This document shows, piece by piece, positions 8,430 through 48,776 of a stretch of 64,000 bases of DNA. Every line of letters starts with the position of its first letter. Position 1 is the first letter of the stretch. Source of the DNA: Gammaproteobacteria bacterium (GTDB lineage: Bacteria > Pseudomonadota > Gammaproteobacteria > G965277405); NCBI GenBank assembly GCA_965277405.1, contig OZ255726.1, positions 426,280-490,279 on the forward strand. Direction: 5' to 3'. The notes beneath the pieces are model-generated. The model made no database searches. It saw only the letters and a list, made by a program, of their open reading frames with translations, and was not told where the DNA came from. A program made the position numbers and the translations under genes.

Positions 8430-8890
8430 TGATGCGTCAGTTACTATATGGAATAATTGGGGTGGCAGCACTGTTTCTAGAGATTGTATATTGTCACTTT
8501 TTTTCTTCGTATCAAGTGCAAATTTTCTTTGTGGCGTTGCTATTGATGCATGACAATACCTGCCCAATTCATCCCATAGTAGTAGCCGCATTGTGCTTAT
8601 TATATGATTCGAGTAGGGTTGCGATATTAGGTAGTAGCTTACTTACTTGCAGCATTATTCTTTACATCACCACGGTATTGTATAATGCCAACTTATTGCA
8701 AAGATCGTTTGCGCAATTTAATGTGGTATTCTGCATAGTAATAGCGTTTATACTTGCCAATCAAAGCATAACTTTGGGGCTAGCGTCTATTGTCGATCAA
8801 CCGATAATCCCAATGCTTATTAACGCATCCATCAGCACGTTGCTATGGTATATATGCGCTAGCATTATGCGTATTGTAGCGCTATATTAA
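8426..8890 (+). CDS. mreD: Rod shape-determining protein MreD (putative)
   Basis: 154 aa polytopic hydrophobic protein, start overlaps mreC stop by 4 nt; identity rests on position and hydropathy. Confidence 0.55.
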   Translation: MMMRQLLYGIIGVAALFLEIVYCHFFSSYQVQIFFVALLLMHDNTCPIHPIVVAALCLLYDSSRVAILGSSLLTCSIILYITTVLYNANLLQRSFAQFNVVFCIVIAFILANQSITLGLASIVDQPIIPMLINASISTLLWYICASIMRIVALY

Positions 8891-14372: not shown

Positions 14373-14855
14373 TTACTGCATAGGATGTTGCCAATCTATC
14401 ATCGTCAGCACGCCATTGCCAACTGAAGACGATAAAATCTGCACCCATTGCGCTGATAATTCATCATCAGTAACCTTAATCGTAATATCAAAGCTGGTTG
14501 CAGTAGCGTTTTCAATAGTCACGGCAACACTCGTATTAGCCACAACGCTGCTATTACATATTGCTTGCCAGAGTGTATTCGCATCGATACACCAGACCCC
14601 GTTCACTGCAACTTGCGTTTGAAATCTACGATGTATTGCATAGCGCATACTAGTGAAAATTTGCTCTATTTGCAGCCTGCGCGCAAAAATTGCTGCGGCC
14701 TGCTGTTCGTACTGCAACACTATCAATACTGTCGTCATCAACAATGCCTGCACCATCCCCAGCAGGATAACCGGCACAACAATAAACCCAGCTTGGCGTT
14801 GTCCTGCATGTGTAACTTTCATTGCGTTAGTATGATTGATGTTTTCATCAATCAT
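14373..14855 (-). CDS. Hypothetical protein with N-terminal membrane anchor
   Basis: 160 aa ORF with hydrophobic segment GFIVVPVILLGMVQALLMTTVLIVL; no family recognised by eye. Confidence 0.35.
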   Translation of the reverse strand: MIDENINHTNAMKVTHAGQRQAGFIVVPVILLGMVQALLMTTVLIVLQYEQQAAAIFARRLQIEQIFTSMRYAIHRRFQTQVAVNGVWCIDANTLWQAICNSSVVANTSVAVTIENATATSFDITIKVTDDELSAQWVQILSSSVGNGVLTMIDWQHPMQ

Positions 14856-14988
14856 CAGCAGTCCTCAGATTGCTTAGCAATCAATGCAAAGCGCATCTAT
14901 AAGCAAGCAAATTCGTTGAGTACAGCAAGTAGCGGTTACGCCATGATATGCATTAATCCAATTGTGATGACCGTTTGCAGATACATAG

Positions 14989-15272
14989 GGAAGCTCTGAT
15001 TAAGTCCATGATGGGCGAGACGGAGAAAAAACGCTGATGATAACTAGACGCAGTGGGCAGATAATACTGGTGGTATTATCAAGTACTGCAACGACGTTAG
15101 CGCAGCGTTTTTTCCCGTCCTTCTGTTGAATATACTTTGGGTTTGCTGCAGCGGTACTTGCTGTGTTGCATCCCTTGGCGTATATGCTACGGCATACGCC
15201 TGCGGAATGCGCCTTGCAATCATCAGCAATTGCAGGCAAACTCGCTCCATCAGCGAGTTAATCAGAGGTTCC
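14989..15272. mobile_element. MITE-like element (IS5-family derived), near-complete copy
   Basis: GGAAGCTCTGATTAAGTCC...GAGTTAATCAGAGGTTCC; reverse orientation relative to copy at 524. Confidence 0.7.
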
Positions 15273-15347
15273 ATCGTAGCTGTTATGTGCAAGACCGATA
15301 AAAACCAAGACCACACGAATGCGGCCTTAGTCAGGAGGATCGGTGTG

Positions 15348-16205
15348 CTATGCTGTTGCCATGGTGCGAATATTATTCATCGCCCGTTCTTCAATCTGAC
15401 GAACCCGCTCTGCAGAAATGTTATATTTGTCGGCCAAATCGTGCAGGGTTAGTTTTTCTTCATCAGTGCGCAACCACCGTTGCACAATAATATCACGGCT
15501 GCGGTCATCAAGTTGCGCGACTGCTGCATGCAGTTTTGTTTGCATGTGATTTTGCCAGTTGCTCTCTTCCATGTTTTGTGCAGGATCTTGAGATTGGTCT
15601 ATCAGATATACTTGCGCAGGGAAGTTAGTATCATCGTTATCATCTATCAATGGATCAACGGATGTATCGACTGATGTTAGCCGGTTTTCCATTTCGCGGA
15701 CGTCTTTTTCTGCAACACCCAAGTCGGATGCAATGCTGCTCACTTCGTCATTTGACAGCCAGCCCATGCCTTTTTTCTTACTGCGGAGGTTAAAGAATAA
15801 TTTTCGTTGTGCTTTGGTTGTGGCAATTTTCACCATCCGCCAGTTCTTTAGCACATATTCATGAATTTCAGCTTTGATCCAATGCACCGCAAACGAAACC
15901 AAACGCACGCCCATTGTTGGATTAAAACGTTTTACCGCTTTCATTAAACCAACATTACCTTCTTGCACTAAATCAGCCAGTGGCAGTCCATAACCGCCAT
16001 AGCTACGAGCAATATGCACGACAAAACGCAGGTGGGATAATATCAATTTGCGCGCAGAATCAACTGAATCGTTATGATAATAGTCATTGGCTATTTCTAG
16101 CTCTTGCTCTGGAGTTAAAATTTCAATATTACGAATTGTTTGCAAATACGCGTCAAATCCGCTAGCACTTACTGCTGGTAACGTGGTGGAATATGTGGTT
16201 GCCAT
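15348..16205 (-). CDS. rpoH: RNA polymerase sigma-32 (heat shock) factor
   Basis: 285 aa sigma-70 family with RpoH box QRKLFFNLR and region 2/4 motifs. Confidence 0.9.
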   Translation of the reverse strand: MATTYSTTLPAVSASGFDAYLQTIRNIEILTPEQELEIANDYYHNDSVDSARKLILSHLRFVVHIARSYGGYGLPLADLVQEGNVGLMKAVKRFNPTMGVRLVSFAVHWIKAEIHEYVLKNWRMVKIATTKAQRKLFFNLRSKKKGMGWLSNDEVSSIASDLGVAEKDVREMENRLTSVDTSVDPLIDDNDDTNFPAQVYLIDQSQDPAQNMEESNWQNHMQTKLHAAVAQLDDRSRDIIVQRWLRTDEEKLTLHDLADKYNISAERVRQIEERAMNNIRTMATA

Positions 16206-16369
16206 GTAAAACTCTCTGTCGTTGATGCTATAATTTATTTTTTTCAGTTGGTATGCCCGTACTGCAATCCAGCCTACACAATATACGTTTTGATATAAAT
16301 GATGAATTTGTTACAAGTTGTAAATGAATATTCATTATTTTTCAAGGGTAACACTATTTATCAGCCCTA

Positions 16370-16418
16370 GCGGACTCGCTGATTAAGTGGCTCCATCAGC
16401 GAGCTAGTCAGAGATTCC
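16370..16418. repeat. Palindromic mini-relic of MITE terminus in rpoH upstream region
   Basis: GGACTCGCTGATTAAGTGGCTCCATCAGCGAGCTAGTCAGAGATTCC followed by TTAG; resembles MITE end CTCCATCAGCGAGTTAATCAGAGCTTCC. Confidence 0.4.
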
Positions 16419-16478
16419 TTAGATATATAGTTTTTTTACAATTTTTTCAATAGTCCTGCATCGCATTTTAATAATTCA

Positions 16479-17066
16479 TCAATTGTTTGCTGTCGCAAGC
16501 CGTATAAAGTTTTCTAAAAGTGTATGCCCATGTTCAGAAAGAATTGATTCTGGATGAAACTGTACCCCATACATTGCCGCATCAATAACCCGCAACCCCA
16601 TAACTTCATCGCGGTTATTCTCCGCATCTAAACTCCACGCAGTGACGGCAATCGAGTCTGGGATATCTGTTACAACCAGCGAATGATACCTTCCCGCGAC
16701 AAATGGTGACGGAATATTTTCAAAGACATCACCGCCAAGATGTTCAATTGAAGATGCTTTACCGTGCATAATATGTTGTGCTTGGACTATCCGCGCGCCG
16801 TATGCTTGAGCAATAGCTTGCATTCCCAAGCAAACACCCAAAATGGGGATGCTGCTGCCAAGCTCGCGCACGACATCAAGGCAAATACCAGCATCATCTG
16901 GCCGGCCAGGCCCTGGAGAAATAACAATGCCTTGTGGTGCCATCTGCTGAATTTCAGTTATATTACACGCATCATTGCGCACTACCCGCGGTTCATGTCC
17001 AAGTTCTCCAAGATATTGCACAAGGTTGTAGGTAAAAGAGTCGTAGTTATCTATCATTAACAACAT
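16479..17066 (-). CDS. trpG: Anthranilate synthase component II / glutamine amidotransferase (TrpG/PabA type)
   Basis: 195 aa class I amidotransferase: GVCLGMQ catalytic Cys, FHPES. Confidence 0.8.
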   Translation of the reverse strand: MLLMIDNYDSFTYNLVQYLGELGHEPRVVRNDACNITEIQQMAPQGIVISPGPGRPDDAGICLDVVRELGSSIPILGVCLGMQAIAQAYGARIVQAQHIMHGKASSIEHLGGDVFENIPSPFVAGRYHSLVVTDIPDSIAVTAWSLDAENNRDEVMGLRVIDAAMYGVQFHPESILSEHGHTLLENFIRLATANN

Positions 17067-17142
17067 TATTATGAAACCTCTAACACAGCGAATTTGTTAC
17101 AAAATGGCGTGGGAATAACACAGCAACCGCGCTATCTCCTAA

Positions 17143-17423
17143 GGAACCTCTAATTAAGTCGCTGATGGAGCGAGTTTGATGGCAATTGCTGATGATTGCA
17201 AGGCGCATTCCGCAGGCGCATGCTGTAGCATATACGCCAAGGGATGCAACACAGCAAGTACCGCTACCATCAAACCCAAAGTATATTCAACAGAAGGACG
17301 GGAAAAACGCTGCGCTCACGTCGTTGCACTTGATAATACCACCAGTATTATCTGCGCACTGCGTCTAGTTATCATCAGCGTTTTTTCTCCGTCTCGCCCA
17401 TCATGGACTTAATCAGAGCTTCC
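17143..17423. mobile_element. MITE-like element (IS5-family derived), complete copy with CTAA flanks
   Basis: GGAACCTCTAATTAAGTC...GGACTTAATCAGAGCTTCC; CTAA at 17139-17142 and 17424-17427. Confidence 0.7.
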
Positions 17424-17427
17424 CTAA

Positions 17428-18636
17428 GGAAGCTCTGATTAAGTCCCAAACAACAGCAATATCAGCTACAAAGATATACAATGGTGAATCTATTTGAATA
17501 TTTGAATAAGCGGATAATCTTATGAAACAAACAACTTTTGCCAGTGCTGCATACGACCACAAGAAAGTAACAACAAAACGTGAAAAATTCTTGCAGTCGA
17601 TGGACAAATTAGCTCCATGGCAACGGTTGTTAGCGTTAATAGAACCGCATTATCCCAAGAAAGGGAATGGCCGCCCACCAATTAATATGCAGACCATGTT
17701 ACGCGTTTATTGTTTACAGCAATGGTACAACTTATCAGACCCAGGGGTAGAAGAAGCACTATATGACATGGAAAGCATGCGGCGTTTTGCCCATATAGAG
17801 CTGATAGACGATGCCATCCCTGATGAAACTACCATCTTGAACTTCCGCAGGATCATAGAAAAGCATCAACTCAGCGTCAAGATACTTGCTGTGGTGAATG
17901 AGTATTGTATGGAAAATAATATAACAATCTCACAAGGGTCGATGGTTGATGCCACGATCATCCATGCACCATCATCTACGAAGAATAAAGAGAAAGCCCG
18001 TGATCCTGAAATGCATCAAACAAGGAAAGGCAATCAGTGGTATTTTGGCATGAAGATTCATATAGGAACTGACGCTAATAGCAATATGATTCATAGCGCG
18101 ACAGTGACAGCCGCGAATGAAGCTGACATCAATGAACTCCCAAAATTGCTGCGTGAAACAGATAAGGTTATCTTTGCCGATGCAGGATATACGAGCGACA
18201 GTTATAAACGCGGCTCGCGTCATCTTGGGATAGATTGGCGTGTGAATGATAAACGCAAGCCAAAGCAGCAAATGAGCACCTCGCAGCGCAAACGCAATAG
18301 ACAGAACTCTAAGGTGCGCGCCCGGATTGAGCACTGTTTTCGGGTAATCAAATGTCAGTTTGGTTATAAGAAAGCTCGCTACAAAGGACTAGAAAAGAAC
18401 CGAGTACAAGTATTTTCTTTGCTTGCATTGACGAACTTATACATGCTTCGAGGACGACTAACAGGATAGAACCGCCAAAAATTCAAGAAAAACAGTAAAA
18501 AACAGTAAAAAACAGTAAAACAGCAACACGAAGATCAGCGAAATGATCAAATATTGACCATTGAAAATTATTGCTATTATTTTTTTGGAGTATATGCGAG
18601 TTATTGGAGTATATGAGCGTCTTAATCAGAGCTTCC
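17428..18636 (+). mobile_element. IS5-family insertion sequence (1209 bp) with perfect 16-bp TIRs and 4-bp CTAA flanks
   Basis: Left end GGAAGCTCTGATTAAG at 17428; right end CTTAATCAGAGCTTCC ending 18636; CTAA at 17424-17427 and 18637-18640; single transposase ORF inside. Confidence 0.8.
17522..18469 (+). CDS. IS5-family DDE transposase
   Basis: 315 aa; close resemblance to IS5 transposase (DPEMHQTRKGNQWYFGMKIHIGTD, FADAGY, VRARIEHCFRVIKCQFGYKKARYKGL). Confidence 0.9.
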   Translation: MKQTTFASAAYDHKKVTTKREKFLQSMDKLAPWQRLLALIEPHYPKKGNGRPPINMQTMLRVYCLQQWYNLSDPGVEEALYDMESMRRFAHIELIDDAIPDETTILNFRRIIEKHQLSVKILAVVNEYCMENNITISQGSMVDATIIHAPSSTKNKEKARDPEMHQTRKGNQWYFGMKIHIGTDANSNMIHSATVTAANEADINELPKLLRETDKVIFADAGYTSDSYKRGSRHLGIDWRVNDKRKPKQQMSTSQRKRNRQNSKVRARIEHCFRVIKCQFGYKKARYKGLEKNRVQVFSLLALTNLYMLRGRLTG

Positions 18637-18695
18637 CTAAGGAACCTCTAACACATAATACTTGGCTGCATGGTAGCCGTAATCTATCGAAACAT

Positions 18696-19226
18696 ATGAG
18701 TAAAACACAACAAAAACGCGATATGCACGCCGTACAAGAACTTGGTGAGCAACTTTTGCAATTGCCGCAGCATTGGCAATCATTACTTGATGCTAAGGCA
18801 ATTGATAGCGCACTTGTCAGCCATTTTACTGAATTTAATCACATCCATGCCAAAGAAGCCCGCCGCCGTCATCTCCAATTTATTGGCAAAATACTCCGCA
18901 AGTATGACACAGACCTCATTCTTAAAACGCTATCTCAACTCGATATCAAACAAAAACGGCAAGCGGTCGGTCAGCATGAACTCCAAGAGTTGTGTGTATT
19001 ACTGCTAGCAAGCAACAATGCAGGCTTTGTCGCAGCAACCACTAAGTTTCCAAACATACCGCGGCAAACGCTGCAGCAACTACTGCGGCAATCCCCAAAA
19101 TATAATACAGGTCTACAGCCATGGGCATCACAGGCAAATAAATATCATCGGAAGCTCTGGCAATTGCTTGTCGTTGAAAATCGCCACAGCGTAGCAGCCG
19201 ACGAGCCAGCACAACTCGATGGCTAA
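18696..19226 (+). CDS. yjgA: Ribosome-associated protein YjgA (DUF615)
   Basis: ORF-track start 18561 lies inside the IS; start placed at first ATG outside the IS (18696, MSKTQQKRD); ARRRHLQFIGKILR resembles YjgA core. Confidence 0.65.
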   Translation: MSKTQQKRDMHAVQELGEQLLQLPQHWQSLLDAKAIDSALVSHFTEFNHIHAKEARRRHLQFIGKILRKYDTDLILKTLSQLDIKQKRQAVGQHELQELCVLLLASNNAGFVAATTKFPNIPRQTLQQLLRQSPKYNTGLQPWASQANKYHRKLWQLLVVENRHSVAADEPAQLDG

Positions 19227-19299
19227 CCATCCAGCATCGATGCGAATCACTGCATGATGGCGTTCTCTGCAAATTTATTGCGAAGCTGCAGACCCTTAG

Positions 19300-19584
19300 G
19301 GAAGCTCTGATTAAGTCGCTGATGGAGCGAGGTTGCCTGCAATTGCTGATGATTGCAAGGCGCAAACCGCTAAGCGCATGCCGTAGCATATACGCCAAGG
19401 GATGCAACACAGCAAGTACCGCTTGTAGGCAAACCATCATATATTCAATAGAAGGACGGGAAAAAACGCTGCGCTAACGTCGTTGCAGCACTTGATAATA
19501 CCACCAGTATTATCAAGTGCTGCGCCTAGTTATCATCAGTGTTTTTTCTCCGTCTCGCCCATCATGGACTTAATCAGAGCTTCC
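19300..19584. mobile_element. MITE-like element (IS5-family derived), complete copy with TTAG target duplication
   Basis: GGAAGCTCTGATTAAGTCGCTGATGGAGCGAG...GGACTTAATCAGAGCTTCC flanked by TTAG at 19296-19299 and 19585-19588. Confidence 0.75.
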
Positions 19585-19612
19585 TTAGACAATAGCGTAT
19601 TCAAACTCGCGG

Positions 19613-20368
19613 TTATTTTGCGGCTATATCAATCAATTCAACTTCGAATTTCAACAGTGAGTTAGCAGGAATTGAATTAGTGCCGCTTTCACCATAGCCA
19701 AGCTCAGGCGCAATATAAAAAGTAAATATGTCGCCAACACTCATCAACAACAAGCCTTCTTGCCATCCTTTAATAACGCCATTCAATGGAAACTGTGACG
19801 GCTCGTTGCGGTTACGTGAGCTGTCAAACTCAGTGCCATCAAGCAACGTCCCAACATAATGTACGGTTACAATACTATCATGCGTAGGTTCATTGGTGGC
19901 ATCACTTTTTTTGTCGATAATATATTGCAGACCAGAGTCTGTAGTTATTACACCAGCTTTCTTGCCATTTTCTGCAAGAAATGCACGCGCTGCTGCAAGA
20001 TTTTTTTCCGAATCAGCGGTTGTATTAGCTTGCTGTTGCTGCGCTTGCTCTTCTGTTCTCTTTTTTTCCATATAGATACGAACAGTCGTCTCTAATTCTG
20101 CAAGTGGTACAACTGGCTCTTTATTTTCTGTGGCGGAGGTTGCTCCTTGTAAAAAAACATCTTTGTCAATTTCTTTAAAGAAATCTATTACCTGCTTAGT
20201 TTGTAAATAACCAATGGCATAGCTCATTTGTTCTGAAGCTGACAATGCCGGGTAATCAATGGTTGTTTCTTTTGCTATAGATTGCTCTGTTGTTGCTTGC
20301 GATGCGGTATCACTACCATTACAAGCAGCAAGAAAGAGCGTAAATACTGTTAGCAATTTGCGATTCAT
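19613..20368 (-). CDS. FKBP-type peptidyl-prolyl cis-trans isomerase, Mip/FkpA-like lipoprotein
   Basis: Lipobox LFLAAC; C-terminal FKBP domain (VTVHYVGTLLDGTEFDSS..GWQEGLLLM..PELGYG). Confidence 0.8.
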   Translation of the reverse strand: MNRKLLTVFTLFLAACNGSDTASQATTEQSIAKETTIDYPALSASEQMSYAIGYLQTKQVIDFFKEIDKDVFLQGATSATENKEPVVPLAELETTVRIYMEKKRTEEQAQQQQANTTADSEKNLAAARAFLAENGKKAGVITTDSGLQYIIDKKSDATNEPTHDSIVTVHYVGTLLDGTEFDSSRNRNEPSQFPLNGVIKGWQEGLLLMSVGDIFTFYIAPELGYGESGTNSIPANSLLKFEVELIDIAAK

Positions 20369-20497
20369 AATGTATCCTTAATTGTGTTGTTAATATTCAA
20401 ATACACATACCATGCTATGTAGGTTGTTGCATTTAGTAAAATGTATTCCTGACTGCGTTGTTAATATGCAAAATACGCATATATCTAGATTGTTACA

Positions 20498-21448
20498 TTA
20501 AGTAATGCGAGTTACTTGTTTTTGTAACATTGTTTCAACAATAGCCCTCCTACTGCCCAGCGGAAAATAATCCAACTCCACCAATGCTGCATCAATATGC
20601 TGTTGCGCATATACTCTGCACTGGTCAAACACCTGCTGGGATGTAAACAATGCTGTACACGTTACCAATGCATCAGGTTGCTGCAAACTATCTTGCAACA
20701 GTCGTTGCTGCTGCGGTGTTCCTTGATGGTAGCCAATCAACCATGGCAAGGTTTTTTTTCCTTCGCGCAAGTCCTGTCCTGCTGTTTTTCCAGTATCAGT
20801 ATCTGGCAAATAGTCGAGCAAATCATCGACGATTTGAAAAGCCATGCCTAGATGATATCCTAGCTGTTCGGCATGCTTAAAAATACTGGCTGGAGCATTT
20901 GCAACTGCCACTGCACTATAACATGTAGCTTGAAACAACCGCGCAGTTTTTTTATGAATAATCGACCAATACTTATCCATGCTCGGCGTTTGCTCTTGCA
21001 TATGCAACAATTGGTCGATCTCTCCCTCGGTGATTACATTGGTGCAGTCAGCAACATAGCGCACTAATTGCAAATTATTTGTTTGTGTCAACATTTGTAC
21101 AGCGCGTGAATATAAAAAATCACCAGCCAATACCGTATGTGCATTGCCCCAGACAATATGTGCGCATGGCTTGCCGCGACGAATCTGTGCATCATCAATG
21201 ATGTCATCATGAACTAACGTGGCGATATGAATACATTCAATAACACTGGCAATCCGCAGCAACTCTTCAACATCGCCATCAAGAGATAGCCCTAATGCCA
21301 ATGCAACTTGCGCCCTGGTATGTTTACCACCAGCATTATGCAAATATGCGCTAAATGCATTCACTTCATCCAGCTCAGAGTAAATACGCCCTGCAAACTC
21401 ATTGACAAACCGCGCATACGCCGCAGCAAATACCGCTGTATCAGTCAT
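20498..21448 (-). CDS. ispB: Polyprenyl (octaprenyl) diphosphate synthase
   Basis: Two aspartate-rich motifs LVHDDIIDD and FQIVDDLLD. Confidence 0.8.
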   Translation of the reverse strand: MTDTAVFAAAYARFVNEFAGRIYSELDEVNAFSAYLHNAGGKHTRAQVALALGLSLDGDVEELLRIASVIECIHIATLVHDDIIDDAQIRRGKPCAHIVWGNAHTVLAGDFLYSRAVQMLTQTNNLQLVRYVADCTNVITEGEIDQLLHMQEQTPSMDKYWSIIHKKTARLFQATCYSAVAVANAPASIFKHAEQLGYHLGMAFQIVDDLLDYLPDTDTGKTAGQDLREGKKTLPWLIGYHQGTPQQQRLLQDSLQQPDALVTCTALFTSQQVFDQCRVYAQQHIDAALVELDYFPLGSRRAIVETMLQKQVTRIT

Positions 21449-23624: not shown

Positions 23625-23916
23625 GGAAGCTCTGATTAACTCGCTGATGGAGCGAGTTTGATGGCAATTGCAGATGATTGCAAGGCGCAAACCGCTGAGT
23701 GCATGCCGTAGCATATACGCCAAGGGATGTAACACAGCAAGTACCGCTGCCGCAAACCCAAAGTATATGTCAACTCAACGACGGGAAAAACGCTGCGCTA
23801 ACGTCGTTGCAGCACTTGGCAATACCCCCAGACCCACCAGTGTTAGCTGCGCGCTGCGCTTAAATTTCATCAGCGTTTCTTCTCCGTCTCGCCCGTCATG
23901 GACTTAATCAGAGACT
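23625..23916. mobile_element. MITE-like element, copy beginning immediately after hisD stop codon
   Basis: hisD TAA at 23622-23624 directly followed by GGAAGCTCTGATTAACTC; distal end degenerate (GGACTTAATCAGAGAC). Confidence 0.7.
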
Positions 23917-37580: not shown

Positions 37581-37869
37581 GGAAGCTCTGATGAAGCCCA
37601 TGATGGGCGAGACGGAGAAAAAACGCTGCTGATAACTAGCCGCAGTGCGCAGATAATACTGGTGGTCTTGTGGGTGCTGCCAAGTGCTGCAACGACGTTA
37701 GCGTAGTGTTTTTTCCCGTCCTGCTGTTGAATATACTTTGGGTTTGCGGCAGCGGTACTTGTGCTGTGCTGCATCCCTTGGCGTATATGCTACGGCATGC
37801 GGTTTGCGCCTTGCAATCATCAGTAATTGCCAGCAAACTCGCTCCATCAGCGAGTTAATCAGAGCTTCC
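37581..37869. mobile_element. MITE-like element, complete copy immediately upstream of the RM operon
   Basis: GGAAGCTCTGATGAAGCCC...GAGTTAATCAGAGCTTCC; followed by another TIR-like stub GGAATCTCTG. Confidence 0.7.
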
Positions 37870-37953
37870 CATGAGGAATCTCTGCGTAAAACCGTGCTTA
37901 GAATTTGATTGCAGCATAAACTTGAATGGCTGCTATACAACATGTTGTTGCTG

Positions 37954-48380: not shown

Positions 48381-48740
48381 TTGCGTATTACCGCACTGAG
48401 CTCTGGCAAACAAATTTCGCTTGTCATCGCCCAACACACCTTCAAATGTCATCATGCGAATTTTGTCACGTTTGTGCGCACCAGTGATCAGCAACTATGT
48501 CGGTATGTCGCGATTATTGCCAATCGAAATATAAAAAACGCCGTGCTCCGCAACTACACAAAACGCATCATAAGAAATGCGCTACGCAGCTTTGATTGTG
48601 GTGTGCAATGCGACGTCGTGATTATTGCTAAACGTGCTGCCAAGCAAGCCAATAAGGTGCAGCTGCGTGCAGCGATACAAAGCACTATGCGGCGTGTGCA
48701 AAAAAAACACACAGCTAGCAACCTCTGCTTAAATCCATGA
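48381..48740 (+). CDS. rnpA: Ribonuclease P protein component
   Basis: 119 aa basic protein directly downstream of rpmH in conserved rpmH-rnpA-yidD-yidC order; start codon uncertain (TTG at 48381). Confidence 0.75.
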   Translation: MRITALSSGKQISLVIAQHTFKCHHANFVTFVRTSDQQLCRYVAIIANRNIKNAVLRNYTKRIIRNALRSFDCGVQCDVVIIAKRAAKQANKVQLRAAIQSTMRRVQKKHTASNLCLNP

Positions 48741-48776
48741 TACAGCGAGTTAACCAGAGGTTCCTCTACTCATAAC

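Follow-up and report, generated by a model that had tools for sequence, protein, structure and literature searches.

Two questions are raised by the spacer between the divergent genes trpG and yjgA in a gammaproteobacterial genome: why the same 15 bp should stand at both ends of a composite insertion within it, and whether that insertion deprived yjgA of its N-terminus. The spacer lies in a 64,000-nucleotide (nt) stretch of contig OZ255726.1 (the window, to whose positions all coordinates refer unless another contig is named). Direct reading of positions 16400 to 19600 gave the order CTAA, MITE (miniature inverted-repeat transposable element), CTAA, insertion sequence (IS) of the IS5 family, CTAA and GGAACCTCTAAC between the two genes, which bore out base for base the layout and the CTAA bounds proposed in an initial annotation of the window. 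The distances given there were also right (76 bp from the trpG ATG at 17066 to the MITE, for which about 75 bp had been claimed, with 72 bp of spacer before the first CTAA; 59 bp from the end of the IS to the yjgA ATG at 18696), and the gene identities hold (YjgA/DarP by PF04751 and NF003593, a TrpG/PabA-type protein by TIGR00566, an IS5-family transposase by NF033581). An exact search of the window found the 15-mer CTAAGGAACCTCTAA where it had been reported, at 17139 to 17153 and 18637 to 18651, with no other exact match (0.07 matches expected at ≤2 mismatches). In the left copy, CTAA is followed by the initial 11 nt of the MITE terminus. The right copy is the target duplication plus native DNA that mimics a terminal inverted repeat. 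The account given here of the anatomy, of the origin of the 15-mer and of an intact yjgA is, taken together, one in which we have high confidence.

The nature of the right copy was established from an empty site. Alleles of the locus were recovered by exact-protein look-up with YjgA and TrpG, on contigs from two ENA assemblies. In one of these, L106 (ERZ26859072, ctg9634), trpG and yjgA are 130 bp apart with one CTAA between them, and the spacer reads ...GCGCTATCTC-CTAA-GGAAACTCTAACACATATACTTGG...ATG; the flanks of L106 differ by ~1%. Its single CTAA is followed by GGAAACTCTAAC (GGAA-A-CTCT-A-A-C in the empty allele). Because L106 has it with no element present, GGAAnCTCTAAC is native flank, and the proposal that the right copy of the 15-mer is a MITE terminus falls with this comparison. 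Termini were then counted in the window and ten additional loci of related strains, 227 kb altogether. In the 82 distinct ends, position 5 is G in 54, C in 14, T in 11 and A in 3, while position 10 is G in 81 and A in one, the left terminus of the window MITE; with C5 in 14 and A10 in a single end, the 15-bp repeat is not the MITE consensus, a possibility that had also been raised. The native flank matches the terminus consensus GGAAGCTCTGA (GGAA-G-CTCT-G-A) at 9 of 11 positions, and the two copies of the 15-mer agree because, besides this mimicry by the flank, the left terminus of the MITE deviates from the consensus at both of the remaining positions. The 227 kb contain GGAAnCTCTnA outside true termini at this native position alone. 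The junction repeat of the other strains is shorter, a 13-mer (CTAAGGAACCTCT), and the MITE termini of a second allele, L001, have G at position 10; the repeat is 15 rather than 13 bp long in the window because the left terminus of its MITE carries the unique G-to-A change at that position. A 15-bp target duplication was considered and rejected, since the family duplicates 4 bp and the left copy runs without a break into the MITE terminus, and the 15-mer should not be annotated as a long target duplication.

The empty allele also bears on yjgA. All 16 aligned homologues (among them E. coli YjgA) have a 9- to 35-residue, mostly acidic tail before an invariant SK motif, whereas YjgA here starts M-SK; the remark that an expected acidic N-terminal segment is lacking was thus borne out by the alignment. 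The conclusion drawn from it, an N-terminal truncation by the insertion, was not. The empty-site comparison, which had been set beforehand as the refuting test, gives the same ATG (MSKTQQ) and the same 176-aa product in L106, with an in-frame TAA just upstream, and when the insert is removed in thought from the window-type flank the frame runs into a TAA at 17117 without an intervening start codon. Because uninserted L106 is equally without it, the missing acidic tail is a lineage trait and not an effect of the insertion. The tail is a trait of the homologues that lies outside the family models, to which YjgA gives a full-length match (PF04751, positions 4 to 152 of 153; NF003593, positions 1 to 153 of 155, 102 bits against a cut-off of 70). 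It might still be argued that the IS inserted into or against a resident MITE terminus, that a MITE end survives in the 11 nt to the right of the IS and that the acidic N-terminus of YjgA was cut off in the process, since the flank equals the left terminus of the window MITE at 11 of 11 nt and the tail of all 16 homologues is not in YjgA. Yet CTAA-GGAAACTCTAAC, the start codon, the length of the product and the upstream stop are all already there in the uninserted allele, and the family models are covered in full, so that this course of events is highly improbable. The yjgA frame does stay open leftward through CTAA into the right end of the IS (18561 to 19226), an extension that gave no Pfam match. 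Because the frame is open across the junction, database versions of 210 aa (P0001) and 217 aa (P0018) start inside the IS right end; these are probably over-extended gene calls, and the start of yjgA should be annotated at 18696.

In the native spacer, G(G/A)AA(C)CTCTAACACA occurs twice in direct orientation, at a distance of 70 bp in the empty allele (17073 to 17087 and 18641 to 18655 in the window; 5994 and 5924 in L106), and the motif at 17073 to 17087 shares the 13-mer AACCTCTAACACA with 18643 to 18655. The pair may represent an operator-like repeat or, alternatively, two relics of termini of great age. A related explanation takes the native flank to be what is left, 11 nt, of the end of a far older and since decayed element, already in place before the strains diverged, which would make the site an element graveyard rather than a chance mimic. 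The flank does resemble the terminus consensus (9 to 10 of 11 positions) directly after CTAA, the second copy 70 bp off is preceded by TTAT, an observed variant of the target duplication, and 47-bp mini-remnants occur elsewhere, as does a terminus-like remnant 5 nt from a MITE at 37875. However, the similarity ends abruptly after 11 nt and has no partner end, the two copies are direct instead of inverted, one overlaps the ribosome-binding region of trpG, and their mutual identity runs into non-terminus sequence (CACA); we consider such an ancestry of the flank unlikely. A different origin can be imagined for the perfection of the 15-mer, namely short-tract exchange (template switching or gene conversion) between 13-bp junctions that copied the flank A into position 10 of the MITE. 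This would account for the lone A in a position that is otherwise always G, and which is the base of the flank. The same A is one of only two substitutions between the window MITE and MITE_B of L001, and position 5 is C in both junction copies where the empty allele has A. Against such an exchange, the homology on the two sides measures just 13 nt and 1 nt, the copies are 1.5 kb apart, a chance single transition is possible and position 5 varies across the family; exchange is conceivable but doubtful.

Two further alleles place the window in a series. L001 (ERZ26859071, contig_2) reads CTAA-MITE_A-CTAA-IS(reversed)-CTAA-MITE_B-CTAA-GGAACCTCTAAC. L108 (ERZ26859072, ctg11680) has three head-to-tail IS copies with CTAA/TTAG spacers, ending in the same CTAA-GGAACCTCTAAC, and on its far side accC takes the place of trpG, so that yjgA is joined to accBC. 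Presence and absence vary accordingly from strain to strain: MITE_A of L001 is not in the window, and L106 has no MITE at the CTAA of the locus. The flanks are near-identical in the window, L001 and L108 (0 of 660 differences on the yjgA side; 3 of 664 on the trpG side between the window and L001). The IS copies of the window and L001 are 98.7% identical (16 substitutions), lie in opposite orientation and are mutual nearest among the 8 copies compared, other copies being ~96 to 97% identical to that of the window. Near-identical flanks around IS copies that differ and lie reversed argue that the insertions in the window and in L001 were independent; one CTAA that is empty or variously occupied across strains is therefore a recurrent insertion hot spot, and an empty and three differently occupied alleles at this CTAA in related strains indicate mobility. 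No fewer than four or five independent events would have taken place at this tetranucleotide. Derivation of the window allele from that of L001 by inversion or MITE-MITE recombination was rejected, as no single inversion or deletion interconverts the two and the IS copies differ more than the flanks. L106 as a product of precise excision was likewise rejected, position 5 of the flank being A in L106 and C in both junction copies of the occupied alleles. Metagenome contig scans with the right flank and with the MITE interior returned no match.

In the history that we propose as the most economical, the single native CTAA in the 130-bp spacer would have been a repeated target of IS and MITE. A MITE would first have entered this CTAA and duplicated it. 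In the lineage of the window, the IS would then have entered the CTAA at the right end of the MITE, duplicating it again to give CTAA-MITE-CTAA-IS-CTAA. In the lineage of L001, a reversed IS would have entered the left-hand CTAA, followed by a second MITE further left, and L108 would have gained further IS copies together with an IS-mediated exchange of the left flank. The MITE probably preceded the IS, because the window MITE is only 2 substitutions (plus a 3-base gap) from MITE_B of L001, which occupies the same site with no IS separating it from yjgA; it is 7 substitutions from MITE_A. The earlier suggestion that the IS landed beside a pre-existing MITE can be kept to the extent that the MITE probably came first and the IS took the CTAA at its right end, but the right copy of the 15-mer, which had been read as a sign of this, is no MITE end.

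A preference for the ends of other elements may explain why insertions recur at this site. In the 227 kb, 15 junctions join two elements across exactly 4 bp (CTAA, TTAG or TTAA), 9 of them MITE-IS and 6 IS-IS. In the seven loci retrieved via the transposase alone, which were thus not selected for the trpG-yjgA locus, 12 of 14 IS copies abut another element. With 2880 YTAR sites and ~82 distinct ends, an estimated ~3% of YTAR sites flank an element. TTCC precedes YTAR at 4 distinct sites among ~57 free ends, compared with 0.39% of background YTAR sites (~17-fold), and these four include the native trpG-yjgA site, the accC flank of L108, position 52118 of the window and position 15028 of L110. 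That the IS prefers YTAR directly beside GGAA, be it a terminus or a look-alike, is on these figures slightly the more probable view. A stronger form, an intrinsic preference for YTAR abutting a terminus of its own kind, of a MITE or of a host look-alike, with end-to-end growth of arrays, we regard as evenly balanced. Under such a preference the end-likeness of the native flank would be the reason for the hot site, CTAA+GGAAGCTCT would be chosen over CTAA in a scrambled context, and each insertion would recreate two YTAR-beside-terminus targets, so that elements would accumulate in end-to-end arrays. Sequence alone may not determine the preference, which may also require a resident or incoming IS whose transposase acts in cis. 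Insertion directed to a terminus, beside a resident inverted repeat or a look-alike, is familiar from IS30, IS911 and IS21, where it leads to abutted ends and tandem arrays. The end-to-end habit of the window IS resembles this behavior, but those three are members of the IS30, IS3 and IS21 families, with junctions linked to circle or dimer intermediates, whereas here the element is of the IS5 family and the spacer is always the full 4-bp YTAR of the target duplication. To our knowledge, an end-to-end copy habit is not a described IS5 trait, and literature searches on end-directed targeting in IS5 found nothing relevant.

The clustering might alternatively reflect selection, with random insertion into YTAR and persistence, in a compact 2.2-Mb genome, of only those copies that lie harmlessly beside other elements. 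The genome has a high coding density and abounds in these elements, and IS elements with the same terminus in other bacteria are unclustered among the matches listed, as if clustering depended on the host and not on the enzyme. Yet internal, neutral YTAR sites (10 per IS and 3 to 5 per MITE) outnumber the two flanking target duplications, and one nested insertion was seen against the 15 exact 4-bp junctions; moreover, the enrichment of TTCC-YTAR concerns free ends in ordinary DNA. We think it unlikely that selection of this kind explains the pattern.

Several points weigh against target preference and the history built upon it. No MITE-to-MITE junction was found among the 15 in the 227 kb, with a sampling that favored IS-rich loci, and a purely sequence-based target rule predicts some; this suggests that an IS is needed as one junction partner. 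In a control set from unrelated bacteria, made up of IS elements that share the 18-nt terminus (contig-scan matches to YTAR plus the terminus, from Acidobacteria, Nitrosomonas, Pseudohongiella and others), 1 end in 104 abuts another element and TTCC is not enriched, among the matches listed. The preference, if real, is thus not a general property of the IS5 group, because elements with this terminus elsewhere lack the habit. Target preference was read from surviving insertions only, and the extra loci, fetched via the transposase and hence enriched for IS-rich places, come from few related strains that are partly dependent. The order of MITE and IS rests on parsimony over three alleles. Finally, A10 is unique to the window MITE and the same base as in the flank, a coincidence for which the proposed account does not provide.

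The IS has terminal inverted repeats that begin GGAAG and are identical at 16 of 16 and at 17 of 18 positions overall, and a single 315-aa open reading frame (ORF). With ≤3 mismatches allowed, GGAAGCTCTGATTAAGTC, the terminal repeat, is matched 20 times in the window (0.03 expected). Membership in the IS5 family follows from a DDE profile match, terminal repeats on ~1.2 kb with one ORF, and a 4-bp YTAR duplication. The duplicated target has the form nTAn (central T and A) at 55 of 61 free ends, and CTAA stands on both sides of the window IS; the target motif of E. coli IS5 is YTAR (PMC5009759). Like IS5 of Escherichia coli, ISPst7 and ISPpu21, the element is ~1.2 kb long, with one DDE transposase (DUF772 and DDE_Tnp_1) and 16-bp repeats starting with GGAAG, and it shares with the IS5 group the 4-bp YTAR duplication, usually CTAA or TTAG (PMC5009759), but its copies lie mostly end to end with other copies or MITEs. 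The transposase is 50 to 53% identical to those of the ISPst7 and ISPpu21 type, the nearest annotated relatives on plasmids; because amino acid identity is this limited, the IS is a distinct, unnamed member of the IS5 group. On the 3' side of the transposase gene lie a 10-bp tandem repeat, AAAAACAGTA, in ~3 copies and a 19-bp tandem pair (18488 to 18520 and 18582 to 18619), and most length differences among IS copies (1208 to 1256 bp) arise because the number of tandem repeats varies between them. Three-copy head-to-tail IS arrays occur at 2300 to 6064 of L108, with frameshifted copies, and at 8660 to 12330 of L115. The outer 4-bp flanks of both arrays are reverse complements (TTAG...CTAA) instead of identical, which suggests later IS-IS recombination.

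The termini of the MITE equal those of the IS over 16 to 19 nt each, and its interior is otherwise unrelated to the IS. The element is short and without coding capacity, has IS-type termini with CTAA/TTAG duplications, and occurs in dispersed, polymorphic copies. Its 78-aa and 60-aa ORFs have no Pfam match, and an Rfam search of 14500 to 20500 gave no match; the MITE folds into a strong predicted hairpin (z-score of -6.5 relative to shuffled sequence). There are ~44 distinct MITE ends in the 227 kb, the size range is 281 to 329 bp, and two sub-types (TTAAGTC and TTAACTC) are found in addition to 47-bp mini-derivatives. Judging from the common termini, the MITE would be mobilized in trans by the IS transposase. 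Correia-type elements are examples of bacterial MITEs. A MITE derived from an IS5-family element is described for Porphyromonas gingivalis (PMC4596501), and the window MITE has in common with it and with Correia-type elements that it is short, non-coding and multi-copy, carries the termini of a resident IS with a target duplication, and forms a hairpin; it differs in an interior unrelated to the IS beyond 16 to 19 nt, in its two sub-types and in the 47-bp minis. One such mini-derivative lies 61 bp downstream of the trpG stop (16372 to 16418) and is kept in all strains, including L001 and the empty-site L106, and a second, again two MITE termini with the interior deleted, at 48718 to 48764. At 23625 and 29888, two MITE 'A' termini lie face to face, 6.2 kb apart, with ATAA/CTAT flanks, and may be composite or rearranged. 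At 37869 to 37892, the right end of a MITE is followed by 5 nt (CATGA) and then by the terminus-like GGAATCTCTGCGTAAAACC outside any recognizable element, therefore a second case of an element adjoining end-like DNA.

Table 1. Features at and around the trpG-yjgA spacer of the window
Feature	Position	Strand	Remarks
Mini-remnant of the same MITE family, 47 bp	16372..16418		Both termini kept, interior deleted; terminal-repeat matches at 16372(+) and 16418(-)
trpG/pabA-type glutamine amidotransferase, 195 aa	16479..17066	-	PF00117, 7.9e-56; TIGR00566, 228.7 bits (cut-off 121)
Second native end-like motif GAAACCTCTAACACA	17073..17087	+	Over the trpG ribosome-binding region; also in L106
CTAA, first target copy of three	17139..17142	+	Direct reading; single CTAA here in L106
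MITE, 281 bp, non-coding	17143..17423	+	Termini match IS termini; left terminus GGAACCTCTAATTAAGTC with variants C5 and A10
CTAA, second copy	17424..17427	+	4-bp spacer between MITE right end and IS left end
IS5-family (IS5 group) IS, 1209 bp	17428..18636	+	Terminal inverted repeats at 17428-17445 and 18619-18636
Transposase, 315 aa, intact	17522..18469	+	PF05598 and PF01609; NF033581, 327.5 bits (cut-off 140)
Promoter-like TTGACC-18-TATTTT in IS right end	18554..18583	+	Toward yjgA; consensus match only, 9/12 positions
CTAA, third target copy	18637..18640	+	Direct reading
Native end-like flank GGAACCTCTAA (pseudo-terminus)	18641..18651	+	In the empty allele L106 as GGAAACTCTAA
yjgA/darP, 176 aa	18696..19226	+	PF04751, profile positions 4-152 of 153; same 176-aa gene in L106
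Further MITE copy, 285 bp, TTAG-flanked	19300..19584	+	70 bp downstream of the yjgA stop

For the neighboring genes, the insertion splits the divergent spacer: trpG keeps 76 bp of native upstream DNA and yjgA 59 bp, and the two genes are now separated from any common upstream DNA. A consensus promoter scan of the native spacer in the empty allele found nothing, and in scans for promoters and terminators neither the occupied nor the empty allele exceeded shuffled expectation, with only weak sites in the occupied allele. Slippage between direct repeats is well established, and by analogy the 13- to 15-bp direct repeats at the ends of the insert should favor its precise loss, 1.5 kb in all, more than a 4-bp duplication would. 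Elsewhere in these organisms (L106, 3841 to 4101 and neighbors; L108, 1 to 405; L109, 20877 to 20948) there are a bufferin-type cluster with BufA1, an MbnB/TglH-like protein, HvfC and DoxX, and two giant proteins, 1222 and 4894 residues long, whose Pfam matches to He_PIG and CLIPPER are weak or faint; the 4894-residue protein also has one to P_proprotein. They carry IS1595-family and IS3-family elements as well, and in L113 a P2-like tail cluster is interrupted by the same IS5-group IS.

The IS and the MITE each add a new member to a known kind, the IS with what may be a mildly interesting habit of targeting. Their locus presents a natural series at one tetranucleotide (empty, MITE+IS, MITE-IS-MITE and three IS copies), which makes it a test case for the choice of target by an IS5-type transposase. 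It also shows how arrays of IS and MITE build up and are then rearranged in a small genome, as in L108, where the trpG side was swapped for accC.

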